Part shown: one piece after another, positions 7 to 28,509 of the stretch | Numbering within the stretch: the stretch's first letter is position 1 | Layout: every line of letters begins with the position of its first letter | Virus record (IMG/VR): IMGVR_UViG_3300028914_000001 | Coordinates: 1 to 29,488 of that record | Reading direction: 5' to 3' (one strand) | DNA length: 29,488 nucleotides | Source: a virus | Taxonomy: Duplodnaviria > Heunggongvirae > Uroviricota > Caudoviricetes | The notes under the pieces: model-generated | What the model was told of the DNA's origin: nothing | Database searches by the model: none | Seen by the model: the letters and a program-made list of their open reading frames with translations, nothing else | Position numbers and translations under genes: made by a program

Positions 7-185
7 GATGGCAGACCTTGGGTCTGCCATCTTTTTTGCCTCGCCCCGTGGTTTCAACATAGGTTATCACCCTCCGCCAGCGGCTGCCAGTCCCCTGCTG
101 CCTCGTTCCGCTGGTTGCTGGTAAGCAAAAGGTTACAATATTTTTTGCAATAAGCCTTGACAAAACAGTTTTAATTATCTATATT
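7..185 (+). repeat. Junction 1: terminator + site A + promoter
   Basis: Hairpin 7-31; site A 53-72 (core CATAGG); TTGACA 157, TATATT 180. Confidence 0.9.
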
Positions 186-214
186 CTATATGAACCTAAC
201 AACGAGGTATTGAA

Positions 215-397
215 ATGGGTTTAGATGAATTTGTGGCTGAGTGCCAAAAGGTTGATAGCCGTATCAAAGTGCAAAAGGTTTATGGGCATAAGGCGGTTGT
301 CATCGGTAATGATTATGTTGTGGTTGAGGGATATAACTTCCCGTATCAAGCCCACCTTATTACTACCCTGATGAAAGATAGCGGTTCGTTTGAATAG
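215..397 (+). CDS. Hypothetical protein, 60 aa
   Basis: AACGAGG SD before ATG, directly after promoter. Confidence 0.8.
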   Translation: MGLDEFVAECQKVDSRIKVQKVYGHKAVVIGNDYVVVEGYNFPYQAHLITTLMKDSGSFE

Positions 398-405
398 GGG
401 GTTAT

Positions 406-600
406 ATGGTGGATTGTGTTGTGCCAAAGGTGGTTACGGAGCCGTCATTTGAACGGAGCAAGGACTTTGACCAAAAGGCTTGGGATAAGAAGCACCGCTG
501 TAAGAAGTGCGGTAAGAAGACCTTTTACAAAGAGATAGCGGGCGGGTGGATTTGCTCAACTTGCTATCCTAAGCTGAAAGAGGAAGAGAAGACTCTTTAA
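406..600 (+). CDS. Small Zn-ribbon protein, 64 aa
   Basis: CKKC...CSTC; GGGGG SD; followed by terminator. Confidence 0.8.
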   Translation: MVDCVVPKVVTEPSFERSKDFDQKAWDKKHRCKKCGKKTFYKEIAGGWICSTCYPKLKEEEKTL

Positions 601-622
601 AAATTTGTTGTGCCGACTCCTA

Positions 623-795
623 GCCCCCTCGCAAGAGGGGGTTTCTCTTTGCCATGCCCGGAGTTCCAACATAGGTTATCACCCTATGCGAGCGGGAACA
701 GGGGCGGCTGCTACCACCCTATATTAAAAGGTGCGACGAGGGTTGCAAAAATTTTTATTGCTCCCCTTGACAAACTGAATTTAATTAACTATATT
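623..795 (+). repeat. Junction 2: terminator + site A + promoter
   Basis: GCAA-loop hairpin 623-642; site A 665-684 (CATAGG); TTGACA 767, TATATT 790. Confidence 0.9.
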
Positions 796-826
796 ATATA
801 TAGAAACAACAAAAGGAGTTGAAAAT

Positions 827-1189
827 ATGGCACAGAAACTTATCACAGCAGAAGTCAAGAAGTTCTTGAAGAAGCACCCTAGCGGTTCGCAAGACGGGCT
901 GAACGGCGAAGCAAAGGTCGCCTGCCGTCTGTTCTGCCCTTTCAGTCATGCATTGACATGGTATATCCTTGAAGGCTACGAGGATAACGAAAACATTGCT
1001 TACGGCTATGTTGTGAACAACTTGCACCCCGAGGATAGCGAATATGGCGATATCGACCTTGCTGAACTTGCCAAGCTGAGACAGTTCGGTTGCCCTGCCG
1101 TTGAACGAGACATTAGCATTAGCGTGGGAATGCCATTGGCCAAAGCCCTAGAAGTATCAAAAGACCCTAAACCTAGTTGGTGGGATTAA
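827..1189 (+). CDS. DUF2958-like protein
   Basis: LF.P....TWY..E.....AYG......E.G.I.L.EL......G.PAVERD pattern recognised from memory; AGGAG SD. Confidence 0.75.
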   Translation: MAQKLITAEVKKFLKKHPSGSQDGLNGEAKVACRLFCPFSHALTWYILEGYEDNENIAYGYVVNNLHPEDSEYGDIDLAELAKLRQFGCPAVERDISISVGMPLAKALEVSKDPKPSWWD

Positions 1190-1218
1190 AGAATTTGCTT
1201 AACTCCCTGATGAAGACC

Positions 1219-1389
1219 GCCCCCTTTACGGGGGCATTTTTTATTTCTTTCCGCTGGGCTTTCAACATGGGTTATCACCCTTGGATGTCTGGAGCTTCGA
1301 GGGCTGTCGCTCCGATGTCCGTGCTGTGGAAACAATGTTAAGATTTTTTATATTATTTTATTGACAAACTAGATTTAATTATGTATATT
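1219..1389 (+). repeat. Junction 3: terminator + site A + promoter
   Basis: Hairpin 1219-1235; site A 1261-1280 (CATGGG); TTGACA 1361, TATATT 1384. Confidence 0.9.
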
Positions 1390-1421
1390 GTTTATACAAC
1401 CCAAACAACGGAGTATAAAAA

Positions 1422-1793: not shown

Positions 1794-1796
1794 GTT

Positions 1797-2033: not shown

Positions 2034-2038
2034 CCATA

Positions 2039-2194: not shown

Positions 2195-2225
2195 GTATAA
2201 GGAAACAACGAAAGGAGTTAAACCT

Positions 2226-3478: not shown

Positions 3479-3648
3479 GCCCTCGTCGAACGACGAGGGT
3501 TTTTCTTTTTTCGTCGCCATGGGTTTCAACATAGGTTATCACCCTTCTGCTGTGGAGTCGAGCGTCGGTCATCGAGTGGTTTGTAACCAAATGTTTACAC
3601 AAATAGTGGTTAAAACCTATTGACAAATTGAATTTAATTAGCTATATT
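3479..3648 (+). repeat. Junction 6: terminator + site A + site B + promoter
   Basis: Hairpin 3479-3500; site A 3525-3544 (CATAGG); site B 3582-3599; TTGACA 3620, TATATT 3643. Confidence 0.9.
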
Positions 3649-3952: not shown

Positions 3953-4107
3953 AAGCCCCCTCGCAAGAGGGGGCTTTACTCGTGTTGCAAGCCAGTTTCA
4001 ACATAGGTTATCACCCTCTGCCGCTGGAACCCGGCGACGCACGAGCTTTCCAGAAATAATTTTTTGCTGAATTAGGGCTTGACAAATTGAATTTAATTAG
4101 GTATATT
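3953..4107 (+). repeat. Junction 7: terminator + site A + promoter
   Basis: GCAA-loop hairpin 3953-3976; site A 3997-4016 (CATAGG); TTGACA 4079, TATATT 4102. Confidence 0.9.
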
Positions 4108-4447: not shown

Positions 4448-4615
4448 GCCCCCTCGCATGAGGGGGTTTCTCTTTGCCATGCCCGGAGTTCCAACATAGG
4501 TTATCACCCCATGCCCGTGGCGGCGTCGAGACCTCCGGGTGTTTACCGTGTTTACAAAACTTTACATAAAATTTTTGTTGTAACCCTTGACTAACTAGAT
4601 TTAATTAAGTATATT
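4448..4615 (+). repeat. Junction 8: terminator + site A + promoter
   Basis: Hairpin 4448-4467; site A 4490-4509 (CATAGG); TTGACT 4587, TATATT 4610. Confidence 0.9.
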
Positions 4616-5187: not shown

Positions 5188-5346
5188 ATCCCCCATCCGC
5201 AAGGGTGGGGGATTTATTTTTTGTTTTCCCCCGATATCCAACATAGGTTATCACCCTTCTGCCGCTGGAACCAGGGGAAGTCGGGGTTCACCAGGATTTA
5301 ATTTTTTATATTTTTTCTTGACAAACTGAATTTAATTAAGTATATT
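5188..5346 (+). repeat. Junction 9: terminator + site A + promoter
   Basis: GCAA-loop hairpin 5188-5213; site A 5237-5256 (CATAGG); TTGACA 5318, TATATT 5341. Confidence 0.9.
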
Positions 5347-6596: not shown

Positions 6597-6764
6597 GCCC
6601 CTCGCAAGAGGGGTTTTCATTTGGCTTCCCCTGAGTTTCAACATAGGTTATCACCCCTCAACCTTCTGCCCGCAGGCGGAGGCTGCTCCGCCAGCCTCGC
6701 TAACAAAAGTTTACACAAAAAGTTCTATATACCTATTGCCTAATTAGATTTAATTAGCTATATT
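6597..6764 (+). repeat. Junction 10: terminator + site A + promoter
   Basis: GCAA-loop hairpin 6597-6615; site A 6637-6656 (CATAGG); TTGCCT 6736, TATATT 6759. Confidence 0.9.
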
Positions 6765-7689: not shown

Positions 7690-7860
7690 GCCCCGAAAGG
7701 GGCATTTCTTTTTGGCAGAGCTGGATATCCAACTTGGGTTATCACCCTTTACCCTTCGCACGCCGTCCCATTCAGATTTCCGCCCGGTTTTGACGACAGA
7801 CTTTTTTTCAAAAAAAGTTGAAAAGCGGTTTACATTTTTATTTCTCAAAACGATATATAA
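7690..7860 (+). repeat. Junction 11: terminator + site A, consensus promoter absent
   Basis: GAAA-loop hairpin 7690-7703; site A 7728-7747 (CTTGGG); only a degenerate TTTACA 7829 / GATATA 7852. Confidence 0.85.
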
Positions 7861-8186: not shown

Positions 8187-8364
8187 AGCCCCCTTTCGTC
8201 GAGGGGGCTTTAACACGCCACGGCTAGAAATTCAACTTAGGTTATCACCCTTCTGCCGCTGGAGGCGTGCGTCGGTCGAGCGTCAGTCATCGTGTAATGT
8301 AATCGAAAGTTTACACAAAAAGTGGCATATACCTATTGCCTAATTAGATTTAATTAACTATATT
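8187..8364 (+). repeat. Junction 12: terminator + site A + site B + promoter
   Basis: Hairpin 8187-8209; site A 8231-8250 (CTTAGG); site B 8298-8315; TTGCCT 8336, TATATT 8359. Confidence 0.9.
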
Positions 8365-8766: not shown

Positions 8767-8920
8767 GCCCCTCCCCTCGGAGGGGCTTTCTCGTGCTGAT
8801 AACTGGGTTTCAACTTAGGTTATCACCCTGCACTGGGGAACCTCCTGTTCCACCCCGGTGTCCGCCAGTATAAAAAATTTTTAATTGCCTATTGACAAAC
8901 TGAATTTAATTAACTATATT
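8767..8920 (+). repeat. Junction 13: terminator + site A + promoter
   Basis: Hairpin 8767-8786; site A 8809-8828 (CTTAGG); TTGACA 8892, TATATT 8915. Confidence 0.9.
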
Positions 8921-9550: not shown

Positions 9551-9701
9551 GCCCCTCGCAAGAGGGGTTTTAATTTTTTTTCTTTTTTGATATCAACATG
9601 GGTTATCACCCTGTCCCCGTGAACCTCCTGTCCCACCCCGGTGTCCACAGTGAAAAATTTTTTATTTATCTATTGACAAACTGAATTTAATTAGGTATAT
9701 T
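9551..9701 (+). repeat. Junction 14: terminator + site A + promoter
   Basis: GCAA-loop hairpin 9551-9568; site A 9592-9611 (ATCAA-CATGGG variant); TTGACA 9673, TATATT 9696. Confidence 0.9.
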
Positions 9702-9734: not shown

Positions 9735-10544
9735 ATGTCAAATTGGGCTTATTCCTTGAACACTCTTACCGCAAAGACTGATGCGGCAAAGCAACAACTT
9801 CACGATTTCATCAAGAACCATCTTAAAAAGGCAGATACTCCTAATTATAGGGGTTGCACTATCGAGGTAGATAGCAAAAGCATTATTCCTATCCCTGATG
9901 GAATTGCAAAGCTTGAAAAGATGGGTAAGTTTATCCAAAACGATGATGGCTCTTTCACCGAAAACGCCAACTATGACAAGAAAGCAGAAGATGCACAGCG
10001 TAAGGCGAACATTGAGCAATACGGCTACGAGGATTGGTATGCCTTTTGCGTTGCCGAATGGGGTTCTAAATGGGGCTTGTGCAACACCATTTTCTACAAT
10101 GATTTTGACGAGGATATCACCACCCTTGAAGAAATCACTGAAACTCTTGATGAAAAGGGTTTCATCAAGTTCAAGTCTGCTACGGCTTGGTCTCCTGCCC
10201 TCGGACTCTTGCAGAAGATTTGCGAACTCTATCCCGACATTGAACTGCGTTGTGAATGGGGCGAGGAACAGGTTACTGAATACTATGGTATCCTCACTTA
10301 CAACAAGACCGATGGCGGACGAGAATACAGTCGCAAAGATATTGAAGTCGGCGAAGCCTACAATATGCTTGACCGCCTTGGGCTTGTAAACAAAGATGAT
10401 GACGATGGGTATTATCCCAATTATGAAAGCGGTCTGGTGGAATACGATAGCCACCGGGATAAGAACAGCGATGAATATATCCCGGCTTACGAAGAACCGA
10501 TTGCCCTCGGTTGCGACCCGAAAGAAATTTCCTGCGAAAACTAG
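9735..10544 (+). CDS. DUF1281/YubB ferredoxin-like domain protein, 269 aa
   Basis: MSNW start; DWY....WGSKW; F..AWSP motifs. Confidence 0.7.
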   Translation: MSNWAYSLNTLTAKTDAAKQQLHDFIKNHLKKADTPNYRGCTIEVDSKSIIPIPDGIAKLEKMGKFIQNDDGSFTENANYDKKAEDAQRKANIEQYGYEDWYAFCVAEWGSKWGLCNTIFYNDFDEDITTLEEITETLDEKGFIKFKSATAWSPALGLLQKICELYPDIELRCEWGEEQVTEYYGILTYNKTDGGREYSRKDIEVGEAYNMLDRLGLVNKDDDDGYYPNYESGLVEYDSHRDKNSDEYIPAYEEPIALGCDPKEISCEN

Positions 10545-10554
10545 GCAAACTCCT

Positions 10555-10702
10555 GCCCCTCGAAAGAGGGGTTTTAAATTTTTTAATATTTGGTTTCAAC
10601 ATGGGTTATCACCCTTTTTCTGGGAACCCCGGCGGAGGCGATAAGCTGTCGTCGAAGATTTTTTTATTATCTATTGACAAACTGAATTTAATTAACTATA
10701 TT
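10555..10702 (+). repeat. Junction 15: terminator + site A + promoter
   Basis: GAAA-loop hairpin 10555-10572; site A 10595-10614 (CATGGG); TTGACA 10674, TATATT 10697. Confidence 0.9.
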
Positions 10703-11213: not shown

Positions 11214-11390
11214 CCCCCCGAAAGGGGGTTTTTCTTGGTTTTCAGCCCAGTTTCAACTTAGGTTATCACCCTATCCTGACTGGAGTCGAGCGTCGGTCGT
11301 CAGGGATAATCCGTCGCCCTGGTGTAACGGAATGTTTACAAAAAATTTTTTATTATATTGCTTGACAAAATGAATTTAATTAGGTATATT
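11214..11390 (+). repeat. Junction 16: terminator + site A + site B + promoter
   Basis: GAAA-loop hairpin 11214-11229; site A 11252-11271 (CTTAGG); site B 11323-11340; TTGACA 11362, TATATT 11385. Confidence 0.9.
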
Positions 11391-11423: not shown

Positions 11424-11804
11424 ATGCGTAAGCAAAAGCCTATATACATTATGGATATTGATACAGGTCATGGAATGTGTCCTGTCGGTGTTGTTGAGGA
11501 GTCTCTTGCAAAAGATACCTGCAAGTGGAATAGTGGTTGGACTGTCTGTTTCACCCTTAATGGATGCGAATGCTTGTGCACCGAGGACACTGCATCTACC
11601 CTAGATGTTCCCGAATATGACTTTATGGACTTAGCCGTTTCCGTTGCGGGGCAAAGTGGGATGTTCCTGCGTTGCTATCCTGCCAAGTATGACGATGACG
11701 ACATAAAGTGCCTTACCGACTTGTTCTTCAAGACCAAGCGAAATGCTATAAGGTTCGTAAAGAAGATTGCGGAATACAGAAAAGAAAATTTAAAAAGGGG
11801 GTAA
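11424..11804 (+). CDS. Cys-rich hypothetical protein, 126 aa
   Basis: AACAACGGGG leader. Confidence 0.8.
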   Translation: MRKQKPIYIMDIDTGHGMCPVGVVEESLAKDTCKWNSGWTVCFTLNGCECLCTEDTASTLDVPEYDFMDLAVSVAGQSGMFLRCYPAKYDDDDIKCLTDLFFKTKRNAIRFVKKIAEYRKENLKRG

Positions 11805-11806
11805 AA

Positions 11807-12235
11807 ATGATTTTCAGAAAACCTAACATCCTTGCTATAAAGGCGTTAATCAACGAATGGCAAAAACACGTTGATGAAAAGTGCGATATTAAGACACTTG
11901 GCGTTTGCTTTGATGTCGGATATATGGCTATGGGATATAGCGGCGGGTTCGCAAAGCCTATCCGTTGCGGATTCACAATAAGTATAACCCCCTGCATGAA
12001 CTCATTGGACTACATCCATTATGATACCCGTTTTTCCCAGTCCAAAGACGGCATCGTTTGGAAAATCGTCCGTGAACATAAGGGCAAAAAGAAAGTTCTG
12101 CATCAGGACACAATCCGAGATGTAAGCATCCTTACAGACGAACCTTGCCCTAGCCTTGTAAAAGAACGTATGTTCAAGGTGGCTTTGGCATCAGTTGACC
12201 TCGCATTGGTTGAACAAAGGTTGATGCACTTGTAA
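11807..12235 (+). CDS. Hypothetical protein, 142 aa
   Basis: ATG 11807 after AGGGGG, coupled to the upstream stop. Confidence 0.75.
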   Translation: MIFRKPNILAIKALINEWQKHVDEKCDIKTLGVCFDVGYMAMGYSGGFAKPIRCGFTISITPCMNSLDYIHYDTRFSQSKDGIVWKIVREHKGKKKVLHQDTIRDVSILTDEPCPSLVKERMFKVALASVDLALVEQRLMHL

Positions 12236-12257: not shown

Positions 12258-12449
12258 TGCCGTGAGGAAAATAGGCACTCACACAGCCTAGCCACAACAC
12301 ACTTTCCTCACGGCATTTTTTATTTTTATTTTTGATTTCCAACTTGGGTTATCACCCTTTCCCCTTCGCCAGCAGGAAGAAGCTGGGGATAAAATTTTTA
12401 AAATTAATTTGATTTACCTATTGACAAACCAAATCCAATTAGCTATATT
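12258..12449 (+). repeat. Junction 17: long-loop terminator + site A + promoter
   Basis: 13-bp stem 12258-12270/12303-12315; site A 12338-12357 (CTTGGG); TTGACA 12421, TATATT 12444. Confidence 0.9.
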
Positions 12450-12490: not shown

Positions 12491-13414
12491 ATGGCAGATA
12501 TCATTCAACTCCCTCGCCTCGCCTCTTGGACGGGCATCGGAAGCACAATCAACGAAAAGACGGTTGATACCGCACTCACAAAGGCAAAGCTCAACTACAC
12601 CGTTCAAAAGGAAACGCTCTGGCTCGCTGACAAGACCAAAGTAGATGATATGGTTGCTAACACCTATCTTGACGAAAAGGGTCACAAGCATATCCTCGGG
12701 GTCGTCGGTGAGAAGTATGAGATAGTGCAGAACCGTGACGGCTTCGCATTCGTGGACTACATCAGCGAAGGCTTGAAGTTCGTCAAGGGTGGCATGACCC
12801 ACACCGGGATGGTTTACCTCATCGCTGAACTCCCCTCTGTAGATATCCTCGGAGACCAGTTCAATCCGTATGTTATTTTCCGTAATTCTTTCAACGGAAA
12901 GTATCAGCTTTCGGCGGCAATTACTCCGCTCCGTGTTGTCTGTCAAAATCAATTTAATTTTGCTTTTAACCACGTTGCGAACACCATCAACATTCGTCAT
13001 TCCGCAAGGGTGGGCGAACGCATGGAAGATGCAAAGGAAGTCTTGCGTGGAGTTGCCATCTATATGGGCAAACTCAACGAGGTTGCACAGCAGTTCAGCA
13101 AAATCAAGCTTACACAGAATGACAAGGAACTTGCTATCAATATGCTGTTCCCCACACCTGACAACGCTGATGAATTGAAAAAGGTGGTCCTCGCCCATCA
13201 GAAGAAAGCATTCGCAGATATGCTCAACGCTGACGACAACCAGAACCATAAGAACAATGCTTGGGGTCTTGTCAACGCTTACACTGACTTCCTCACTCAC
13301 ACGAGCATTCGTAAGGGCCGTTATCAGGACTCGCAGTTCATGAACACCTGTTTCAAGCCGATGAACAATGTTCTCAACATCATTGACCACATCAAGGCCG
13401 TAAAGGTGGCATAA
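12491..13414 (+). CDS. DUF932 / TIGR03299-like phage-plasmid protein, 307 aa
   Basis: LGVVG..Y..VQN...FAF.D; NSFNG......ITP.RVVC.NQ; I.H; NAWGL.NA.T.. motifs. Confidence 0.85.
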   Translation: MADIIQLPRLASWTGIGSTINEKTVDTALTKAKLNYTVQKETLWLADKTKVDDMVANTYLDEKGHKHILGVVGEKYEIVQNRDGFAFVDYISEGLKFVKGGMTHTGMVYLIAELPSVDILGDQFNPYVIFRNSFNGKYQLSAAITPLRVVCQNQFNFAFNHVANTINIRHSARVGERMEDAKEVLRGVAIYMGKLNEVAQQFSKIKLTQNDKELAINMLFPTPDNADELKKVVLAHQKKAFADMLNADDNQNHKNNAWGLVNAYTDFLTHTSIRKGRYQDSQFMNTCFKPMNNVLNIIDHIKAVKVA

Positions 13415-13434: not shown

Positions 13435-13603
13435 TGCCCCCCATTTGGGGGGCATTCTTTTTTCGTCGCCCTGATGTTCAACTTAGGTTATCACCCTTTC
13501 CCAGAGGCTGCCAGTTTTCGGCGATACGACGGTCTGCGTTAAAGAAAGTTTACACAAATAATTGGCTCCACCTATTGACTAAACGGATTTAATTAGCTAT
13601 ATT
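13435..13603 (+). repeat. Junction 18: terminator + site A + promoter
   Basis: Hairpin 13435-13454; site A 13477-13496 (CTTAGG); TTGACT 13575, TATATT 13598. Confidence 0.9.
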
Positions 13604-14104: not shown

Positions 14105-14280
14105 AGCCCCCGCCCGCAAGGGTGGGGGTTTTATCATGGTTCGACCCGAGTTTCAACATGGGTTATCACCCCTTGACTGGAAACCTCCTGTCCCATTCCT
14201 GCTCCGCCCGATGGGTAACGAAAACTTTACGAAAAATTTTTTCTTTTTCTATTGACTAATTGGATTTAATTAGGTATATT
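14105..14280 (+). repeat. Junction 19: terminator + site A + site B + promoter
   Basis: GCAA-loop hairpin 14105-14130; site A 14152-14171 (CATGGG); near-site B 14214-14231; TTGACT 14252, TATATT 14275. Confidence 0.9.
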
Positions 14281-15039: not shown

Positions 15040-15200
15040 AGGGGGGTTAAACCCCCTTTTAATTTATTTTATTTTATTTTTCAACTTGGGTTATCACCCT
15101 TACGCCTTCACCCGGCAGTCCCATCAGACGACGAGGTTTACATTTTGTTTACACAAAATTTGATATAACCCATTGACAAATAGATTTAATTAACTATATT
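15040..15200 (+). repeat. Junction 20: terminator + site A + promoter
   Basis: Hairpin 15040-15057; site A 15080-15099 (CTTGGG); TTGACA 15173, TATATT 15195 (16-bp spacer). Confidence 0.9.
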
Positions 15201-15234: not shown

Positions 15235-15969
15235 ATGCCTAATTGGGTAAACAACGATTTGAGAATTACCTCGGAAAATCCTGAACGCATTAAGGCTATC
15301 CGTGCAAAGCTGTTCACGGTTTACCACGGCAAGGATTATGTTGGCTGTGATGGCAGGGAATACCTGTCCTATGCCGTTCTTATCCCAGTAGACCTCAATG
15401 ACCCGAACTACCGAGTCAAGCCTGAGAACGCCAACATCACTGCGATTGACAAGCGTGATGACGGCACTATCTTCGACTGGTATCACTACAACCTCGACAA
15501 GTGGGGCTGCAAGTGGGATGTCTCGCCAGAGGAGTGCCAGATAACGGAAGACACAGACCGCAACATCTGCGTGTCCTTTACTTCCCCTTGGGATTGCCCT
15601 TGTGAATGGTATCACAAACTTTGTGAGGAATTTCCCGATGTTTCCATTGAACTTGTCGCTATGGACGAGGCGATGGACTATTATTGGGAAAATGGCAAGT
15701 TGGGTAAGATTTCCGAGCAGTTCGATGAAGAGGAAGTGAAGCGTGCCGAAGTCAAGCGTGTGTTTGACGAAAACAACCTTTCCCTTGACGATTACAATAT
15801 TAAAAAAATTATTGAAAATTACGAGGATGGGTATTTTGAATATTTAGATATGTTCGACCCTGACACTTGGGAATTTACTATCGACGACGAAGAGGAATTT
15901 TTGGATTTGTGCAAGCAATACAAAAAGAAGAAACCTCGCAAGAAAAAAGCGAAAAAGCAGGAAGTTTAA
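15235..15969 (+). CDS. DUF1281/YubB ferredoxin-like domain protein, 244 aa
   Basis: MPNWVNN.L.I; DWY......WGCKWD; F.SPW..P motifs; basic C-terminal tail. Confidence 0.75.
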   Translation: MPNWVNNDLRITSENPERIKAIRAKLFTVYHGKDYVGCDGREYLSYAVLIPVDLNDPNYRVKPENANITAIDKRDDGTIFDWYHYNLDKWGCKWDVSPEECQITEDTDRNICVSFTSPWDCPCEWYHKLCEEFPDVSIELVAMDEAMDYYWENGKLGKISEQFDEEEVKRAEVKRVFDENNLSLDDYNIKKIIENYEDGYFEYLDMFDPDTWEFTIDDEEEFLDLCKQYKKKKPRKKKAKKQEV

Positions 15970-15974: not shown

Positions 15975-16139
15975 GCCCCGAAAGGGGCATTTTTTATTTT
16001 TCTTTTTGGGTTTCAACATGGGTTATCACCCTAGCCTCGACTCCAGCTGTCCAACTCGGTTTCCGCCAAAGTCTGTATCTAATTCTTTACACAAAATTGT
16101 TGGAAACCTATTGACAAAACCAATTTAATTAGGTATATT
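15975..16139 (+). repeat. Junction 21: terminator + site A + site B + promoter
   Basis: GAAA-loop hairpin 15975-15988; site A 16012-16031 (CATGGG); near-site B 16074-16091; TTGACA 16111, TATATT 16134. Confidence 0.9.
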
Positions 16140-16807: not shown

Positions 16808-16978
16808 GCCCCCGAAAGGGGGTTTTCCTTTGCCTCGAACCGGGTTTCAACTTAGGTTATCACCCCTCACCCTTCTGCCCGCAGGCGGAGGCTGGTTGGT
16901 ATCGAGGGGGTTGTATCAAAAAGTTTACAATTATTTTTGCCCTGACCTATTGACAAAAGAGATTTAATTAGGTATATT
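16808..16978 (+). repeat. Junction 22: terminator + site A + site B + promoter
   Basis: GAAA-loop hairpin 16808-16823; site A 16846-16865 (CTTAGG); near-site B 16912-16929; TTGACA 16950, TATATT 16973. Confidence 0.9.
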
Positions 16979-17013
16979 ATAGTTAAGTAAAACCCTTAAC
17001 AACGGAGACATTT

Positions 17014-17880
17014 ATGGGTGAAAGAAGCGACTTTTTTGTCCGAGTTCGGGCGAAAGAAAAAACAAGCGACAGGTTCTATAAACATCAGGCATTCTTTGGT
17101 CTCTACTATCAATGGTGCTATGGTGAACGCATGATTAGCCGTCTGCGTTCTGCTCTCGCCTTTGTGGAGAGCGAGATTAGCGGTAGGCATGGTAGCTATG
17201 CTGTAACCAAAGAACAAATGGATAGGTTCAAGCGGTATCTTGGTATCAACTTCGATATGAAAGACTTTGTAGATACAATAGACCTCATTCCCTCTACGGT
17301 CGATGATATTATACAGGGTCTTGACACGGCTAAATCTGACATTTTCGACCAAGCCGAAAACCACGGGTATATCTACCTTGACATTACCCTTGATGACCCC
17401 GACAAAAAGTTCGGTGATAATAATGCTAAAATCAAGTATGCCTTTGTTGATAGTGAGTATCACTCTAAGAAAAACCCCCTCCCGCCCGTTCGGAGTGTAG
17501 AAAGCTTTGCCGACCACGATATAGGCGACGATGAACGCAAGTGGTATGAACCTGACCCATATTGGGCTGATAAGTCTTGGGGGGCTGCACACAAAGAGCG
17601 TTTCTTGAACGATATTGTCCCGACCGCCAAAAAGAACATTGAGGCAATCAATTCCTCGGCAACCTTGATGACCGAAGATGACCGCAAAGAATTTGTAAAA
17701 TTCGGTCGTGCTTATGCAAGAAAGATTTTCCGTGAAGCTGAAAAGAAAAAAATGGAAATCAAGGAACAGAGAGAAACCCTGACCGCTGAAATCTGCTCAC
17801 AGGAATACTTACCTGCTGAACTCCATAACAAGTTATTGGAACTCGTAGATAAGGTCTACCCGAAACCAATAAGAGAATAA
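17014..17880 (+). CDS. Phage hypothetical protein, 288 aa
   Basis: AACAACGGAG leader; MG.RS...YYQW.YGERMISR pattern. Confidence 0.85.
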   Translation: MGERSDFFVRVRAKEKTSDRFYKHQAFFGLYYQWCYGERMISRLRSALAFVESEISGRHGSYAVTKEQMDRFKRYLGINFDMKDFVDTIDLIPSTVDDIIQGLDTAKSDIFDQAENHGYIYLDITLDDPDKKFGDNNAKIKYAFVDSEYHSKKNPLPPVRSVESFADHDIGDDERKWYEPDPYWADKSWGAAHKERFLNDIVPTAKKNIEAINSSATLMTEDDRKEFVKFGRAYARKIFREAEKKKMEIKEQRETLTAEICSQEYLPAELHNKLLELVDKVYPKPIRE

Positions 17881-17898
17881 CTCATTCGCCTGACTCCT

Positions 17899-18064
17899 GC
17901 CCCCTCGAAAGAGGGGGATTTTTATTTTTTTATTTTTGATTTTCAACTTGGGTTATCACCCCTGCCCCTTCACCCCGCCGCAGACTCGTGCGTGCATCTG
18001 TTTAGAAAACTTTACATAAAAATGATGAAACCCTATTGACAAAACCAATTTAATTAGGTATATT
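17899..18064 (+). repeat. Junction 23: terminator + site A + promoter
   Basis: GAAA-loop hairpin 17899-17917; site A 17942-17961 (CTTGGG); TTGACA 18036, TATATT 18059. Confidence 0.9.
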
Positions 18065-18098
18065 TATATCATAGAAACAAATCAACGGAGAATTAAAA

Positions 18099-18506
18099 AT
18101 GGGCTACACTAACTATTGGTCGCTTAATACACGCAAAAAGAAGTTCAGCGGCTATGTTCTCGAAAAGGTTGAGAAAATCTTTTCCGTCTACGCTGAAAGC
18201 ACGAATAAAAAGCTGGTCGAAACCGCAGGAAGCAAAAAGGGTGCTGTCGTGAACTCGACACGCATCCAATTCAACGGTGGCTCTGACGATGCCTACGAAG
18301 ACTTCTACATCAACCTCAGACACCGAATTGACTTCAACTTCTGCAAGACCAATCGGAACATATACGATAGGGCTGTCAAGGCTGTCCTTATGTTGCTCGA
18401 ACAGGAACACTACATCAAGGAGTGGCACTTCGACGGACACTTCATCGACTCGGAATATTCCAAAGCAAAAGAATTGCTTGATAAAGCAGGAATAGCACAC
18501 AACTAA
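18099..18506 (+). CDS. MGYTNYW-family phage protein, copy 1, 135 aa
   Basis: MGYTNYW...FNG...E.F...FCKT...YD..V; paralogue of 21799..22239. Confidence 0.8.
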   Translation: MGYTNYWSLNTRKKKFSGYVLEKVEKIFSVYAESTNKKLVETAGSKKGAVVNSTRIQFNGGSDDAYEDFYINLRHRIDFNFCKTNRNIYDRAVKAVLMLLEQEHYIKEWHFDGHFIDSEYSKAKELLDKAGIAHN

Positions 18507-18519
18507 AAAGGAGTTCACA

Positions 18520-18864
18520 ATGGGACTTGATATCAGCATCACAACAAAGAAACACGACAACGATTTCCGCAAGCACAACTATCTCTTCCGTTGGGTAGAG
18601 AACCGTGTAGGCACAATCGAAAACGAACAAACCTACTACCTTGAAAAGCAGGACATTCAGGACTTGCTCGACTCCATCAATGAAGTTCTCGATGACCACA
18701 GCAAGGCGGAAGACGTGTTGCCTACACAGTCGGGGTTCTTCTTTGGTAGCACGGAATATGACGAAGGCTACTTCGAAGACCTCGAATATGCGAAAGACAA
18801 ACTCTCGGCCATGATTGACGATTGGGAAGAGGGAGAGCAAGCCGAATTTTGGGCGTGGTGGTAA
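18520..18864 (+). CDS. MGLD-type acidic phage protein, 114 aa
   Basis: MGLD...RK.N....W...LPT.SGFFFGST.YD..Y pattern recalled from uncharacterised phage proteins. Confidence 0.8.
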   Translation: MGLDISITTKKHDNDFRKHNYLFRWVENRVGTIENEQTYYLEKQDIQDLLDSINEVLDDHSKAEDVLPTQSGFFFGSTEYDEGYFEDLEYAKDKLSAMIDDWEEGEQAEFWAWW

Positions 18865-18885
18865 TGGGGGTATAACATTCCCCGG

Positions 18886-19044
18886 ATGCCCTCGAAAGGG
18901 GGCATTTTTATTTTTTCTTTTTTGGGTTTCAACTTAGGTTATCACCCTTTTCCTGGAAACCTCCTGGGGATAATCCAAGTTTACAAAACTTTACATAAAA
19001 AACAACGGCTTACTCTTGACTAAACCAATTTAATTATGTATATT
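18886..19044 (+). repeat. Junction 24: terminator + site A + promoter
   Basis: GAAA-loop hairpin 18886-18905; site A 18928-18947 (CTTAGG); TTGACT 19016, TATATT 19039. Confidence 0.9.
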
Positions 19045-19073: not shown

Positions 19074-19784
19074 ATGGCTAAAAAGTTCAATCCTAATAAA
19101 TACACTTATCACTTCAACCTCGGGCATAACGTAAAGCTCGGCGAAGGCATCGCAACATGGTCTACCCTTAAAGGGTCTGAATTGCTCTACATCCCTGTCC
19201 TTGAAAAAAAGGTGCGTGGCACTTGCAAGGATAGTGAGTATTGCACCAAAGACTGTTATGTAAACAAGAGCTACAACCGCTTTCCAAAGACCGCCCTCTA
19301 CGGTCATGCTAGGAACACAATAGGGCTTCGTCGTTGCCCGTCCAAGGTGTTCGCTGACCTGCATCGCCAGCTTTCAGTCACCAACCGCTTCCGCATTGTA
19401 CGCATCAACCAGAGCGGCGACATTGAAAATATCCAAGAGCTTGAAATGTGGGTAAACCTTGCTTTGCTCCATCCAAATTTCACTTTTTACATCTACACTA
19501 AACAATTTAAGATAGCATCTGAATTTGTTTTGTCGAACGGCTTGCCCAAAAACTTCCATCTGAATTTCTCTATTTGGCATGAACACGGGGTAAACGAATA
19601 TTTCAAGGTCGCATCTAATCCAAATGCTCACGCTTTCGTCTATGATGACGGAGAAACCTATATCCCGGCTAATGACTATTGCAGGGCTTACATCAATGGT
19701 AAACTCAACCATAAGATAACCTGTGAAGTATGTAAGAAGTGTTATAAGCCAAAGACGAAAGTTATCTATTGCAAGTCTCATTAA
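19074..19784 (+). CDS. GP88-like phage protein, 236 aa
   Basis: GTC...C...CY; R....SGD; FY.YTK; N..FS; C-terminal TCxxCxxC. Confidence 0.65.
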   Translation: MAKKFNPNKYTYHFNLGHNVKLGEGIATWSTLKGSELLYIPVLEKKVRGTCKDSEYCTKDCYVNKSYNRFPKTALYGHARNTIGLRRCPSKVFADLHRQLSVTNRFRIVRINQSGDIENIQELEMWVNLALLHPNFTFYIYTKQFKIASEFVLSNGLPKNFHLNFSIWHEHGVNEYFKVASNPNAHAFVYDDGETYIPANDYCRAYINGKLNHKITCEVCKKCYKPKTKVIYCKSH

Positions 19785-19788: not shown

Positions 19789-19958
19789 GCCCCCGAAAGG
19801 GGGCATTTTTTATTTTTTATTTTTTGATTTTCAACATGGGTTATCACCCTAGCCTCGACTCCAGCTGTCCCACTCGGTTTCCGCCCTCGACTGTAACGAA
19901 ATCTTTACACAAAAAATGATGGAAACCTATTGACAGCCAATATTTAATTAGGTATATT
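19789..19958 (+). repeat. Junction 25: terminator + site A + site B + promoter
   Basis: GAAA-loop hairpin 19789-19804; site A 19830-19849 (CATGGG); site B 19892-19909; TTGACA 19930, TATATT 19953. Confidence 0.9.
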
Positions 19959-20583: not shown

Positions 20584-20612
20584 TTGACAATATGGATTTA
20601 ATTATCTATATT
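20584..20612 (+). promoter_or_regulatory. Orphan module promoter (no terminator or site A upstream)
   Basis: TTGACA-17 bp (TTTAATTA)-TATATT. Confidence 0.85.
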
Positions 20613-20896: not shown

Positions 20897-21069
20897 GCCC
20901 CCTCGCAAGAGGGGGCTTCTCTTTATCCCACCTTGGGTTTCAACATGGGTTATCACCCTTTCACTGGAAACCTCCTGTCCCATCCCGGTGTCCATCCCAG
21001 CCTGTAACGAAATCTTTACACAAAAAATGATGGAAACCTATTGACAAAACCATTTTAATTAGGTATATT
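20897..21069 (+). repeat. Junction 26: terminator + site A + site B + promoter
   Basis: GCAA-loop hairpin 20897-20916; site A 20939-20958 (CATGGG); site B 21003-21020; TTGACA 21041, TATATT 21064. Confidence 0.9.
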
Positions 21070-22248: not shown

Positions 22249-22417
22249 GCTCCCTGCATAGGGGGCATTTTTATTTTTTATTTTTAATTTCCAACTTGGG
22301 TTATCACCCCTCAACCTTCTGCCGCCGTCCCCTCGGTTTCCGCCCTCGACTGTAACGAAATCTTTACACAAAAATGTTGGAAACCCTATTGACTAAAACA
22401 ATTTAATTAGGTATATT
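22249..22417 (+). repeat. Junction 27: terminator + site A + site B + promoter
   Basis: Hairpin 22249-22266; site A 22290-22309 (CTTGGG); site B 22351-22368; TTGACT 22389, TATATT 22412. Confidence 0.9.
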
Positions 22418-23299: not shown

Positions 23300-23328
23300 T
23301 TGGCAAATCTCTTTTAATTAGGTATATT
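23300..23328 (+). promoter_or_regulatory. Orphan module promoter (no terminator or site A upstream)
   Basis: TTGGCA-17 bp (TTTAATTA)-TATATT; site-B-like AGTAA-N8-TTACA at 23273-23290. Confidence 0.8.
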
Positions 23329-24281: not shown

Positions 24282-24310
24282 TTGACAATTTGGATTTAAT
24301 TATCTATATT
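24282..24310 (+). promoter_or_regulatory. Orphan module promoter (no terminator or site A upstream)
   Basis: TTGACA-17 bp (TTTAATTA)-TATATT, 17 nt after the upstream stop. Confidence 0.85.
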
Positions 24311-25433: not shown

Positions 25434-25637
25434 CCCCCGACGGGCATGGTTTGTGGTCATAAGCAAAGCTCCGTTGTTTCTAGCCCGTCGGGGGCTTTTC
25501 TTTTATCCCCATATCAGTTTCAACTTAGGTTATCACCCCTACGCCTTCGACGCCAGTCCCCGTCGTAGCCTGTAACGAAATCTTTACACAAAAAGTGATG
25601 GAAACCCCTTGACTGAAACCATTTAATTAGGTATATT
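25434..25637 (+). repeat. Junction 28: long-loop terminator + site A + site B + promoter
   Basis: 12-bp stem 25434-25445/25483-25494; site A 25519-25538 (CTTAGG); site B 25571-25588; TTGACT 25609, TATATT 25632. Confidence 0.9.
25446..25482 (+). ncRNA. Candidate 3'UTR antisense RNA (loop complementary to module leader, SD and AUG)
   Basis: Loop reverse complement = TAGAAACAACGGAG-CTTTGCTT-ATGACCACAAACCAT; the first 14 nt equal 21075-21088 exactly. Confidence 0.45.
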
Positions 25638-25669
25638 TATAGCATAGAAACAACAACAGGAGATATACT

Positions 25670-26137
25670 ATGAGTTTCCATGGCGATGAAGATTGGCTCG
25701 ATATGAATGGGCTTCTCACAAACGAAAACACCGAACAGTACAAGGACGACATCAAGGAATTGCTGTCCAAGTATTACAAGTGGGATGAAGACTGCGAGGA
25801 GTTCGAAGATGACCACCCCGACACCTACCACAAGTACGAAATCCGTGCAGAGTTCGAAGATGAATGCTGTGATGACACCTTCAAGACCATCCTGCATATT
25901 GAGGTATGGCTCCCGACTGACGATGATGCAAAGGAACTTGCCGACATCATCGACGGCGAGGTTGTAGGTGGTCTCAACGAAGGTTGCCCCACTTTCCGCA
26001 TAACTTACAGAAACGAAATCTACATCAAGGCTGAAAACAAAGAGGAAGCCGAATCAATTTTCAGAAACATGAGCCGTTCCAAACTCGAAGAATGTTCTGA
26101 ATTTGTCGAAATCGTAAGCAACGAAAAGGAGGACTAA
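25670..26137 (+). CDS. Very acidic hypothetical protein, 155 aa
   Basis: TAGAAACAACAACAGGAG leader. Confidence 0.8.
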   Translation: MSFHGDEDWLDMNGLLTNENTEQYKDDIKELLSKYYKWDEDCEEFEDDHPDTYHKYEIRAEFEDECCDDTFKTILHIEVWLPTDDDAKELADIIDGEVVGGLNEGCPTFRITYRNEIYIKAENKEEAESIFRNMSRSKLEECSEFVEIVSNEKED

Positions 26138-26140
26138 CCC

Positions 26141-26437
26141 ATGTCTATGTTTGTCATCATCGAACACTCGACCGAAACCCCTATCCAAAAAGCAGGGCTT
26201 AACTATCCGTTCAAAACCTATGACGGAACCGTGGAAGCCCTTATCCGCACCCTCAAAGACAACAATGAACTCTATTGCGATGGAACCAATGGGGGTTACG
26301 AAATCCATGTTCCCGACAGCGATGAAAACCTCGAACACGAAACCGAAATCCGTGATGCGATGAAAAGCAGCCACTCACTCGTTGTAGACCATGGCGACTA
26401 CGATGTGCGTTATGACATCGTTGAACTCCTGCCATAA
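26141..26437 (+). CDS. Acidic hypothetical protein, 98 aa
   Basis: GGAGG SD inside the upstream gene end. Confidence 0.8.
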   Translation: MSMFVIIEHSTETPIQKAGLNYPFKTYDGTVEALIRTLKDNNELYCDGTNGGYEIHVPDSDENLEHETEIRDAMKSSHSLVVDHGDYDVRYDIVELLP

Positions 26438-26465
26438 AAAATTTTTAATTTTCCCGGAGGCATAA

Positions 26466-26801
26466 ATGAAGCTCAAACTCTATCTCGGTGTCTGCCCTAA
26501 CCGAATTGATGTTCTTCTCGACAAGAAGAAAGCCGACAAGGACAGGTACCTGCGTATCGAAGAAAAGACCATCGACATCCCCGATGCTCTCCTCACGAAA
26601 TCCGCCAAGCCGAAGAAAAGCGGAAAGGTAACTACCATCTGCTACGGCAAGCGTGATACATGGAACAGTGCCAAGGATGCTATCGACTATTTCAACGATG
26701 CCGCTAACAACTCCGATGGTTGCGAAAGGGAAAGATACCTTACCATCGTCAGCAAACTGCTTGACGGCGAAACCAAGGATGTAACAGACAGCTTCGGCTA
26801 G
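26466..26801 (+). CDS. Hypothetical protein, 111 aa
   Basis: GGAGG SD. Confidence 0.8.
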   Translation: MKLKLYLGVCPNRIDVLLDKKKADKDRYLRIEEKTIDIPDALLTKSAKPKKSGKVTTICYGKRDTWNSAKDAIDYFNDAANNSDGCERERYLTIVSKLLDGETKDVTDSFG

Positions 26802-26808
26802 AAATCCC

Positions 26809-26977
26809 ACCCCTCGAAAGAGGGGTTTTATTTTTTTATTTTTTGAGTTTCAACTTAGGTTATCACCCTCGGCTCGACTGCAGCTGTCCCACTCGGTTTC
26901 CGCCCTCGACTGTAACGAAATATTTACACAAAAAATGATGGGAACCCCTTGACTGAAACAATTTAATTAGGTATATT
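26809..26977 (+). repeat. Junction 29: terminator + site A + site B + promoter
   Basis: GAAA-loop hairpin 26809-26826; site A 26849-26868 (CTTAGG); site B 26911-26928; TTGACT 26949, TATATT 26972. Confidence 0.9.
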
Positions 26978-27005
26978 TATAACATAGAAACAACAGGAGA
27001 AACCT

Positions 27006-27767
27006 ATGGCAAAAATCATTTGCAAAGAATTTCCGAAGCCTATCCATAAGTGCATCCACAATCCCCATGTCGATGTCATCAAGACACGCAAGGATGGCAA
27101 GGACACCTACATCTACGAAGTAAGAGCAGATGGTGTTCCCACCTTTGTTATCAACCCGGATGAAACCTTACCCGCAGGCAATATCCCGAACCTCGAAGAC
27201 ACTTGGTACGGCGGTCAATGGCCCGGTAAGGATTGCAACGGGGGCGACTACGACCTGAACCTGTATGACCTTAGCGTGTACGGCGACGGCTGTGGCGTAG
27301 GGGCAAGCATCTACTCCTGCGTCCAGCAAGGCGACTACCCGACCACAAACTTTAATGACTGCGTAAAGGCTACCGTCAAATGCTGGTTCCAAGATGAAAA
27401 GGGCAAGCGAACCGAGTTCAATTACAATATCCCCGACAGCTATCTCGAAAAGTTCGGTGAATGGGATGGCAAGCCAATTCAACTCGTCAAGCGCCCGACC
27501 GATGAAGTATTAAAAGGCGCCAAAGAAATCGTTAAAAAGCTCAAAAAATTTTTGAAGAAAAACAAGCTTGAAATCCACTACGACATGGCAAGCGACAATG
27601 TTTACCTGCTCCCAAAGAAAGGATGGGATGATGCAACACGGGATGATGTCATCAAGGCGATGAAAGCATCCGGCAAAATCCTCAACCCTAGAACATGCGC
27701 TACAAAATGGGGATGGGTTCGTGGTTCTGAACTTGATGATAACTGGTTCTGCAAAGGAGGCAAGTAA
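27006..27767 (+). CDS. Hypothetical protein, 253 aa
   Basis: TAGAAACAACAGGAG leader. Confidence 0.85.
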   Translation: MAKIICKEFPKPIHKCIHNPHVDVIKTRKDGKDTYIYEVRADGVPTFVINPDETLPAGNIPNLEDTWYGGQWPGKDCNGGDYDLNLYDLSVYGDGCGVGASIYSCVQQGDYPTTNFNDCVKATVKCWFQDEKGKRTEFNYNIPDSYLEKFGEWDGKPIQLVKRPTDEVLKGAKEIVKKLKKFLKKNKLEIHYDMASDNVYLLPKKGWDDATRDDVIKAMKASGKILNPRTCATKWGWVRGSELDDNWFCKGGK

Positions 27768-28075
27768 TGGCTAAGAAAAAGAATACTCTCATGGGTAGGA
27801 TGCCGTCAAAGGAAGTGCTTGCCGAAGGCCGTCAAATCGTGTCCGAACTTATGGACTACCTCGGCAAAAACAAGTTGTACCTCATGTTTGACCCCGACGA
27901 CTATAAGCTTCGCCTCGGACCCGAGGGCCTGACCCATGTCGAAGACGGGGTTCAACCCAAGGGTAAAATCCCCTATACCAAAGAGGAAGATGAGGTTTGG
28001 GACGATAACTATTCCCTCGATATTGAGTGGAGCGAGTTCGACCCGGATAACTTCGACGATGATGAGGAGGACTAA
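27767..28075 (+). CDS. Acidic hypothetical protein, 102 aa
   Basis: TAATG stop/start overlap; AGGAGG SD. Confidence 0.8.
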   Translation: MAKKKNTLMGRMPSKEVLAEGRQIVSELMDYLGKNKLYLMFDPDDYKLRLGPEGLTHVEDGVQPKGKIPYTKEEDEVWDDNYSLDIEWSEFDPDNFDDDEED

Positions 28076-28078
28076 CAA

Positions 28079-28345
28079 ATGACCAATGAAAAGAAAAACG
28101 AATTTTCCAAAGTTCTCGAAGACAACGACCTTAATTATTGTTTCGGCTGGAATCTACAAGACGAATTTGAAGTCGAAGTCCACGAGGGCGACTGGAAGCA
28201 TGACCACATCCGTCTTAACTTGATTATGGAAAAGAATGGATATGAACTGGTTAGAGAAACCCATATCGGCCCGCCCACAGATGGCGACTGGTATAGCGCT
28301 ATCCATGTCTTCCGCAAAGCCGAACCCGAAACCCCTGCCGCCTAA
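28079..28345 (+). CDS. Hypothetical protein, 88 aa
   Basis: GAGGAGG SD in the upstream gene end. Confidence 0.8.
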   Translation: MTNEKKNEFSKVLEDNDLNYCFGWNLQDEFEVEVHEGDWKHDHIRLNLIMEKNGYELVRETHIGPPTDGDWYSAIHVFRKAEPETPAA

Positions 28346-28349
28346 TCAT

Positions 28350-28509
28350 ACCCCTCGAAAGAGGGGTTTTCATTTATCTCATCCCCAGTTTCAACTTGGG
28401 TTATCACCCCTTGACTGGAAACCTCCTGTCCCCATCATGGATTGTAAACCATTTTTTACACAAAAAATTGACTAAACCCATTGACGGCCAAGTTTTAATT
28501 AGGTATATT
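28350..28509 (+). repeat. Junction 30: terminator + site A + site B + promoter
   Basis: GAAA-loop hairpin 28350-28367; site A 28390-28409 (CTTGGG); site B 28443-28460; TTGACG 28481, TATATT 28504. Confidence 0.9.

Follow-up and report, generated by a model that had tools for sequence, protein, structure and literature searches.

A conserved 20-bp site behind predicted terminators in the gene-cassette array of a T4-type rumen phage: a candidate protein-bound roadblock

The DNA stretch studied here (the window, 29,488 nucleotides (nt) in full) is the start of the 422,150-bp virus record IMGVR_UViG_3300028914_000001, labelled G000 below, and carries an array of small-gene cassettes whose junctions share a 20-bp sequence, site A. 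We propose that this array is an early, hyperplastic domain of a T4-type phage composed of PeSL-type units, and that site A would act as a protein-bound roadblock or insulator at the terminator, a reading to which we give slightly better than even credence. As published, PeSLs combine a stem-loop terminator with a sigma70-like early promoter and flank ORFans in the hyperplastic regions of T4-type genomes (PMC2839356, PMC4122927). The proposed role is based on the position of site A, which keeps a distance of 20-25 nt from the terminator and no set distance from the promoter; such a tight spacing, independent of the intervening sequence, points to a physical coupling.

Anatomy of the junctions

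Site A was searched with the pattern TYCAACWTRGGTTATCACCC, allowing up to two mismatches. The window gave 30 matches, all on the + strand, and 100 shuffles gave none. Neighbouring copies are 472-3229 bp apart, most of them 0.5-1.4 kb, which confirms the 30 direct junctions at intervals of roughly 1 kb reported in the initial annotation of the window. The copies are listed below in window coordinates, together with the parts of one example junction.

1-29488, +: part of the 41-kb one-directional early-gene cassette array (G000 414,497 to 32,964)
53-72, +: site A copy, pattern match
665-684, +: site A copy, with the class-2 element CCACCCTATATT at 714-725 plus a class-1 promoter
1261-1280, +: site A copy, pattern match
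2081-2100, +: site A copy, pattern match
2944-2963, +: site A copy, pattern match
3525-3544, +: site A copy, pattern match
3997-4016, +: site A copy, pattern match
4490-4509, +: site A copy, pattern match
5237-5256, +: site A copy, pattern match
6637-6656, +: site A copy, pattern match
7728-7747, +: site A copy, with a variant promoter (TTTACA type)
8231-8250, +: site A copy, upstream hairpin with a weak T-tract
8809-8828, +: site A copy, pattern match
9592-9611, +: site A copy, one mismatch (position 1)
10595-10614, +: site A copy, pattern match
11252-11271, +: site A copy, pattern match
12338-12357, +: site A copy, T-rich tract upstream without a clear hairpin
13477-13496, +: site A copy, pattern match
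14152-14171, +: site A copy, pattern match
15080-15099, +: site A copy, pattern match
16012-16031, +: site A copy, pattern match
16808-16831, +: example junction, predicted intrinsic terminator, stem-loop GCCCCCGAAAGGGGGT (GAAA loop) ending 22 nt 5' of site A, plus T-tract
16846-16865, +: example junction, site A copy
16866-16925, +: example junction, GC-rich spacer without conserved sequence or fold
16950-16978, +: example junction, class-1 promoter TTGACA-17-TATATT with TTTAATTAGG spacer
17014-17880, +: example junction, open reading frame (ORF) reached from the promoter at 16950-16978 through leader, GGAG and ATG
17942-17961, +: site A copy, pattern match
18928-18947, +: site A copy, pattern match
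19830-19849, +: site A copy, pattern match
20939-20958, +: site A copy, pattern match
22290-22309, +: site A copy, pattern match
25519-25538, +: site A copy, pattern match
26849-26868, +: site A copy, pattern match
28390-28409, +: site A copy, pattern match

Every junction is a composite of ~210 bp, made of an intrinsic terminator, ~22 nt of linker, site A, a GC-rich spacer, a sigma70 promoter, a Shine-Dalgarno (SD) sequence and an ATG. In the printed sequence this appears as a GC hairpin with a T-run, a short linker, site A, a GC-rich stretch and an A/T-rich stretch that often holds TTTACA, followed by TTGACAAA-N-TTTAATTANNTATATT, the leader, GGAG and ATG. The order terminator, site A, GC-rich segment, promoter, leader and ORFs was already described in the initial annotation, and it holds with few exceptions: the GC hairpin and T-run lie 5' of site A in 28 of the 30 window junctions (8231 has a weak T-tract and 12338 only a T-rich tract), and a TTGAC-N17-TATATT promoter with a TTTAATTA spacer is present at 29 of them, 7728 having a variant promoter. 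A consensus scan of the first 20 kb gave 18 perfect TTGACA-17-TATATT promoters on the + strand, and 53 terminator-like sites for 18 expected, the strongest directly upstream of site A.

The statistics of this anatomy were obtained on 155 junctions from five genomes. Hairpin and T-tract terminators, with at least five T in the tail, were found in 137 of these junctions and fit intrinsic (factor-independent) terminators. From the 3' end of the stem to site A the distance is 20-25 nt in 124 of the 137, with a mode of 22, and the linker holds little sequence information; the distance from site A to the promoter is variable (63-117 nt). In the array, 23 of the 24 stringent + strand terminators have site A downstream, versus none of 43 elsewhere in the genome, and nothing conserved was detected downstream of these 43. 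The density of terminators is 0.59 per kb in the array versus 0.05 per kb elsewhere. Stand-alone class-1 promoters, found inside cassettes and on the - strand at 39-53 kb, come without terminator, site A or GC spacer. Because of the fixed spacing to the stem, the floating distance to the promoter and these site-less promoters, we assign site A and the spacer to the terminator rather than to the promoter. The window contains the following stand-alone promoters:

20584-20612, +: class-1 promoter within a cassette, without terminator, site A or GC spacer
~23300-23328 and ~24282-24310, +: other stand-alone class-1 promoters

Two further regularities were noted. Most terminator hairpins have CCCC(T)C/G(A)GGGG stems closed by GNRA-type tetraloops (GCAA or GAAA), for instance at 622-643, 2040-2057, 16808-16823 and 17900-17917 in the window. 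At many junctions TTTACACAAAA recurs ~20 nt 5' of the -35 box, 52-56 nt past site A (e.g. 16926-16940), and could serve as an UP-like element or as a second, weak -35.

The GC-rich spacer, with ~65% GC at +10 to +40 past site A, keeps its composition (C about equal to G) and neither its sequence nor its length. It was rejected as a Rho utilisation (rut) site, with a mean of 13.8 C versus 12.4 G and more C than G in only 63 of 123 junctions, and as an RNA or DNA hairpin, its folding compared with shuffles giving a mean z of -0.3. A search of 52 kb against Rfam returned no match at gathering score, and neither a tRNA (ARAGORN) nor a consensus fold was found in the junctions or in the gene-less units described below. 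Contigs of an RNA run cover the gene bodies 17006-17891, 18087-18869 and 25657-26459. None of the RNA contigs listed spans a site A, which DNA contigs do; at best, this hints weakly at low transcription of site A and the spacer.

Conservation of site A

Site A is 20 bp long, asymmetric and always in direct orientation. Its conservation was assessed on 482 distinct copies anchored only on the 3' box, GGTTATCACC. In this set, positions 3-6 and 8 are at least 98% invariant, variation is limited to positions 2, 7 and 9, with two states each, and at least 15 positions are invariant over the ~480 copies. The site comprises two boxes 11 bp apart, TYCAAC and GGTTATCAC, and forms no hairpin; a covariation between position 9 and the base after the site (R9-Y21) was not significant (p = 0.08). 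In 50 orthologous junction pairs, the mean identity is 93% for site A, 82% for the promoter, ~80% for the flanking genes, 76% for the terminator region, 72% for the linker and 66% for the GC spacer, random spacer pairs reaching 55%. Invariance over ~480 copies, at a constant distance from the terminator, implies selection on site A itself. From these sequence comparisons, site A has the character of a bipartite protein site, most likely recognised as double-stranded DNA. In the literature, the motif string was met only in unrelated primer lists, and the searchable texts yielded neither the motif nor the composite of terminator and site A.

Extent of the array and nature of the phage

In the whole of G000, 46 unique copies of site A lie on one strand and span 414,497 to 32,964 across the record ends; no copy was found on the opposite strand or in the other 380 kb. 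The map is circular, its "terminal repeat" being a 110-bp assembly overlap. The array measures 41 kb, or 9.7% of the 422-kb genome, with ~46 units in a single direction. The scan of the remaining genome and of relatives, recommended in the initial annotation, thus extended the array beyond the window, and it also disclosed four related records with like arrays (41, 38, 22 and 8 copies). More than 115 rumen or gut metagenome stretches carry the site as well; rumen and gut metagenomes contain ~480 distinct copies.

Among the largest ORFs of G000 are those for a Gp23-type major capsid protein (PF07068, E 7e-64), a family-B DNA polymerase, a gp46/Rad50-like (SMC/AAA_23) protein and the anaerobic ribonucleotide reductase NrdD. 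Because of these four genes the phage is, by its sequence, assigned to the T4-type jumbo myoviruses of the rumen; the sequencing runs that contain this DNA are bovine gut or rumen samples, and in runs X1-X5 its depth is about 70x. A megablast search against GenBank phages gave no match and no close sequenced relative was found; a search for distant relatives by promoter motif returned the same lineage only, plus single chance matches. Site A arrays also occur in two "bacterial" metagenome-assembled genomes (MAGs): on contigs of 101 kb and 317 kb of a sheep-reticulum 'Bacteroidaceae' (JAFXNA010000009.1 and JAFXNA010000004.1) and on a 10-kb contig of a human-gut 'Alistipes' (CAAGBL010000026.1). 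These are evidently mis-binned phage contigs. The bins are poor evidence of the host, since the TTGACA/TATATT promoters and GGAG ribosome sites of the phage are not Bacteroidota-like.

Class-2 junctions, tandem run and boundary arrays

A second class of junctions is located mostly at the 5' end of the array; the fifth one of G000, at window position 665, is also followed by a class-1 promoter. In class 2, a conserved CCACCCTATATTAAGGG without a -35 box follows site A at 28-30 or 19-20 nt, and after it come a leader hairpin and an SD sequence; the two distances are one helical turn apart. This element was found only in the array and nowhere else in the genome (L040:4545, 7105, 8410 and 9605; window 714-725). 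The leader hairpin is conserved with compensatory changes, e.g. CGAGGC-gatgtt-GCCTCG.

At G000 416,629-417,075 (L040:6629-7075), five copies of site A stand in tandem with no gene or promoter between them. Each of the first four is followed by a GC-rich unit of ~75-95 nt, the fifth being a class-2 junction, and a terminator is present at the first copy only. Two metagenome contigs keep the run in order and sequence (L162:4256-4685 and L163:118-549). The tandem units contain the motifs GAGTTCGA (T-loop-like) and ACGAGTGCC, and ordinary spacers resemble 5' fragments of these units.

Both ends of the array are occupied by other repeats. On the right, a non-coding array conserved in relatives adjoins the last site A (G000 33,000-33,430; L039:3500-3930) and consists of TTATCAAC/GTTGATA boxes and GTTTCAAC units with a period of ~11 bp. 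Its first unit pair, GTTTCAACATGGGTTTCATC, has 15 contiguous nt in common with site A, and the right array of the relative G002 includes a degenerate copy of the site. On the left, just upstream of the first site A (G000 414,100-414,400; L040:4100-4400), lies a paralogous iteron-type array of TGTTGATA boxes and 7-10 units of GTTCTGAAC, GTTGCAAC or GTTGGAAAC with a period of 11-13 bp, conserved in the relatives G001, G002 and G003; CCTGTTGATAACTTGTG is common to the two arrays. The boundary iterons vary among relatives (GTTCTGAAC, GTTGGAAAC, GTTTTCAAC). The 41-kb domain thus appears to be bracketed by two arrays of the protein-binding type related to site A, which bears on the organisation or delivery of early DNA in giant phages. 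The bases that precede site A were also compared with the boundary iterons for covariation; the idea was dropped, the signal being suggestive in G000 and G002 and inconsistent in G001.

The cumulative GC skew of G000 rises to a maximum at about 20-45 kb and falls to a minimum at about 210 kb, and the right boundary array is located at the switch, a polarity which in bacteria would be terminus-like. Transcription converges on the same array, which has the + strand cassettes to its left and early promoters of the - strand to its right, at 33.4-53 kb.

Rearrangement of the cassettes

Between relatives, the arrays show broad synteny at 65-95% identity and differ by insertions, deletions, replacements and translocations of whole cassettes. 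Some breaks are precise. G001_30 and G002_28 are ~100% identical from the base after site A onwards and unrelated before it, G000_31 and G002_28 form the mirror case with the break at site A, and G003_15 and G001_14 part in the promoter/leader. We surveyed crossovers in 366 junctions from all sources, retaining pairs with one flank shared at 90% identity or more: in about 108 of them the break is within or close to site A, in about 159 it falls in the promoter/leader, and pairs are not independent events. Where both flanks are shared, only the spacer differs in 22 of 88 pairs. Gene adjacency is broken at 31 of 153 site A junctions (20%), 15 of 49 tight gene boundaries (31%) and 6 of 14 promoter-only gaps (43%), and the jump in ortholog identity has a median of 9.3 points across junctions versus 9.1 within cassettes. 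The initial annotation had suggested testing whether order and content vary between relatives with breaks at site A; the variation and some exact crossovers were indeed found, but without enrichment at the site.

It had also advised looking for a tyrosine recombinase or DNA-binding gene that accompanies the motif. PF00589 has no match in the complete 422-kb genome (all the control genomes match), and the serine recombinase PF00239 and the Y1 transposase PF01797 were likewise undetected there. Assembled contigs break at the junction repeats, and many apparent contig joints are in fact other junctions of the same array, the intervening letters being e.g. the spacers of 5237 and 6637.

Two genes that share one cassette in the window (11424-12235, families 54 and 55) stand in separate cassettes, in the other order, in G001 and G002. 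Their break falls exactly between stop and start with no junction motif, so that single genes also move without site A.

Crossovers are also seen in the promoter/leader, and gene boundaries of the ordinary kind break just as readily, which argues against site A as a dedicated recombination joint. Taken over its full length, the junction is a dispersed repeat of 200-240 bp whose copies within one genome are 69-92% identical, which is enough homology for recombination of the T4 type. The region is hyperplastic, and its plasticity takes the form of short-homology recombination at conserved regulatory blocks and at gene boundaries. The modular, rearrangeable cargo put forward in the initial annotation therefore stands as regards PeSL-type units and turnover of content, and finds no support as regards site A as the joint of a dedicated system. 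That annotation had allowed that the motif would be a purely regulatory repeat if gene order were conserved or indels did not map to the junctions, and no junction reads existed; on that criterion the motif behaves mainly as a regulatory repeat.

Proposed role of site A and alternatives

We suggest that the array would be an early region of the host-takeover type, with about 46 autonomous transcription units all read in one direction. Its cassettes would turn over by ordinary homologous or short-homology recombination with T4-type machinery (a gp46/Rad50-like gene is present), crossovers being located in site A and the promoter/leader, the two blocks of highest conservation, and to the same extent at ordinary gene boundaries. 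A sequence-specific protein, encoded by the phage or the host, would bind site A and stop RNA polymerase at the U-tract, or otherwise insulate the unit from read-through, and each junction would then be a roadblock-reinforced terminator. Pavco and Steege reportedly observed in 1990 that a polymerase halted by a bound protein leaves the RNA 3' end ~14 bp before the site. U-tracts are 7-9 nt long (PMC3993855). With a 22-nt linker, a stand-off of 14 bp would set the RNA 3' end ~8 nt past the stem, at the end of the U-tract. If this is right, the junctions would represent a new way of enforcing the boundaries of transcription units, and a ready-made part for synthetic biology combining terminator, insulator and promoter in about 210 bp. 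In a wider and more tentative version, which we think possible but doubtful, the family of the site A protein would also bind both boundary arrays, and the early compartment so delimited would be regulated separately and might be the first DNA to enter the cell.

Several points weigh against the roadblock. No binder can be named: most array proteins are without a family, and the candidates Rep_3, DnaA C-terminal domain and MotA went undetected (the MotA control was also without a match). The terminators look competent already, with tails of at least five T in 137 of 155 junctions, and the need for a roadblock is not obvious. Four of the five site A copies in the gene-less tandem run, as well as the first copy of the array, have no terminator. 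Class-2 junctions, where site A is phased to a promoter-like element 3' of it, suggest an activator role for the site, at these junctions at least. The roadblock model leaves the function of the GC-rich spacer unexplained, and published PeSLs have no third element, so that membership of that group holds for the architecture only.

Among the other explanations considered, a single protein could bind site A and both boundary arrays as iterons, serving to titrate an initiator, to handcuff or loop the 41-kb domain, or to coordinate replication with transcription. The 15 contiguous nt shared between site A and the first unit pair of the right array, the same boxes in the left array of all relatives, the 11-bp step between the two boxes of the site and its degenerate copy inside the G002 array all speak in this direction; but the boundary iterons differ between relatives when site A is invariant, no Rep_3 or DnaA-type protein was found, the skew polarity at the right array is ambiguous and would in bacteria mark a terminus, not an origin, and the 22-nt phasing to the terminator is left unexplained. 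We regard this as unlikely. Site A could also be an upstream activator-binding site or a promoter element in units with dual promoters. Class-2 copies, helically phased to the array-only CCACCCTATATTAAGGG with its leader hairpin and SD sequence, suggest as much, and there is a precedent in phage nt-1, whose PeSL variants have middle-mode promoters (PmSL; PMC4122927). Against this, in roughly 120 class-1 junctions the distance of site A to the promoter is unphased (63-117 nt), no plausible -35/-10 geometry can be read in the site, and stand-alone class-1 promoters do without it; a MotA homologue or a T7-type RNA polymerase gave no match, but neither did the controls, and their absence is therefore not established. 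As a general account of site A, an activator site seems quite unlikely to us.

The integron-like system, in which site A would be the recombination core and a dedicated recombinase would move single cassettes, is improbable in our view. It would account for the junctions in which ~100% identity gives way to none precisely at site A, for the 18 homology blocks that end at positions +18 to +22 of the site, and for a site that is 20 bp long, asymmetric and always direct. Yet blocks would stop at the 3' edge in any case, given the lack of constraint on the spacer that follows, crossovers in the promoter/leader are no rarer than those at site A, order breaks show no enrichment at site A junctions (31/153 vs 15/49 at tight gene boundaries) and junctions show no excess mosaicism, the complete genome has no detected tyrosine or serine recombinase or Y1/HUH enzyme, and strict phasing to a terminator is not expected of a recombination site. 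A staged entry of the DNA, with the array entering first as in T5 or SPO1 and site A and the boundary arrays acting as ratchet or stop, is highly improbable. In its favour, the domain is one-directional, makes up 9.7% of the genome and is bounded by repeat and palindrome arrays with DnaA-box-like sites, and its cargo includes a RadC-like JAB protein, DUF932, DUF1281_C and an AAA+ protein, types that are common beside anti-restriction genes in early-entering DNA; staged injection is not known for T4-type phages, however, and in the probable source run contig depths are similar in the array and at its edge, with no clear twofold excess (a weak and indirect indication). Least probable of all, site A and its GC tail could be a selfish intergenic repeat of ~115 nt, similar to miniature inverted-repeat transposable elements (MITEs) or repetitive extragenic palindromes (REPs), which would lodge in terminator-promoter gaps without function for the phage. 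The gene-less run of 4-5 units kept in three sources, the likeness of ordinary spacers to 5' fragments of these units and the similar spacers found between unrelated genes (20 pairs within genomes, 18 between genomes) would suit such an element, but no transposase-like gene was found in the complete genome, there are neither terminal inverted repeats nor a fold, all copies keep to one orientation and one domain, and the constancy of at least 15 positions over ~480 copies, at a constant distance from the terminator, indicates selection on the site.

Cargo of the array

Counting its flanks, the array region has 127 ORFs in about 120 families; they are mostly small and unrelated, as the initial annotation had stated. 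Most of the 30 array proteins scanned belong to no Pfam or PHROG family, the exceptions being a RadC-like JAB domain, DUF932, two DUF1281_C proteins, GP88 and an AAA+ ATPase, of which the window contains:

12491-13414, +: DUF932 protein (E 1e-36)
9735-10544 and 15235-15969: DUF1281_C proteins
19074-19784: GP88

This cargo fits accessory early functions, with a few domains of the anti-restriction type, and an anti-defence role is plausible. The array also lists over 100 small early proteins without assigned function from an uncultured giant rumen phage, as candidates for host-takeover and anti-defence activities. Two proteins were considered as binders of site A and set aside: the 432-amino acid (aa) AAA+ protein of the first cassette is a generic ATPase, and the conserved 291-aa protein beside the right array has no family and no Atlas match, its single-sequence structure model (predicted local distance difference test, pLDDT, 40) being unusable.

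Comparison with known systems

As in integron arrays, direct units of ~1 kb with unrelated cargo are separated by a recurrent site. Unlike integrons, with their attC sites and IntI, the phage has no detected integrase, site A is an invariant 20-bp sequence and not a structured imperfect palindrome, and crossovers are not confined to it. Integron cassettes are promoterless and share a common Pc, whereas a near-consensus promoter is present at 29 of the 30 window junctions, which bears out the observation of the initial annotation that each cassette has a promoter and a terminator of its own.

For SPO1, Stewart et al. are said to have described in 1998 a host-takeover module of 24 genes in 12 operons with strong early promoters, placed in the terminal redundancy. 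This module and its location are mentioned in later texts (PMC6873191, PMC10531801). The present array is similar as a block of short early operons that encode small host-directed proteins and have strong host-type promoters of their own. SPO1 is nevertheless a member of the Herelleviridae with no described post-terminator site, and the likeness considered here is that of architecture. In T5, the first-step-transfer region accounts for 7.9% of the genome, with an injection-stop region that holds eight DnaA boxes as well as repeats and palindromes (bioRxiv 10.1101/866236). Both phages thus have an early domain of ~8-10% of the genome bounded by non-coding repeats, palindromes and DnaA-box-like sites, but T5 is a siphovirus with defined ends, long terminal repeats and no junctions per gene cassette.

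The eukaryotic Pol I terminator consists of a T-rich element followed by a Reb1/TTF-I site. We know of no intrinsic terminator, in bacteria or phages, that has an obligate protein site 3' of it, and as far as our knowledge and literature search go, such a composite would be new for these organisms. Protein roadblocks to transcription as such are documented for EcoRI Q111, LacI and Tus (review PMC10310618). Like theirs, site A lies a short, fixed distance past the expected stop of the polymerase, and its 20 asymmetric base pairs would fit a polar block; unlike theirs, its protein binding is only predicted.

The closest match is with the PeSL cassettes. PeSLs mediate deletion, insertion and replacement, with crossovers between the -10 box and the ATG, mini-circles have been detected through inverse PCR, and examples are known in RB49/phi1, T4/PST and KVP40/nt-1 (PMC2839356, PMC4122927). 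The junctions described here agree with them in the T4-type genome, in a terminator stem-loop placed upstream of a strong early promoter, SD sequence and ATG, in the small ORFans they flank within a hyperplastic region, in relatives that differ by insertion, deletion, replacement and displacement, with crossovers lying within the motif, and in having no known dedicated recombinase. The initial annotation had not recognised a described element, but cassettes with promoter and terminator, shuffled through homologous recombination, have been published under this name (PMC2839356, PMC4122927), and the concept of modular cargo is thus already described in this phage group. The differences are the invariant 20-bp site and the GC-rich spacer of 35-70 nt inserted between stem-loop and promoter, which are 100-140 bp apart here, the phasing of the site to the stem-loop, a far larger and strictly one-directional array (46 units, 41 kb) bracketed by iteron-type arrays, and order breaks that are not enriched at the junctions. 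What is new, and absent from the PeSL papers, is the third invariant element, its phasing and the GC spacer, and the array is the largest and most regular example of such cassettes that we have met, with a third component under extreme selection.

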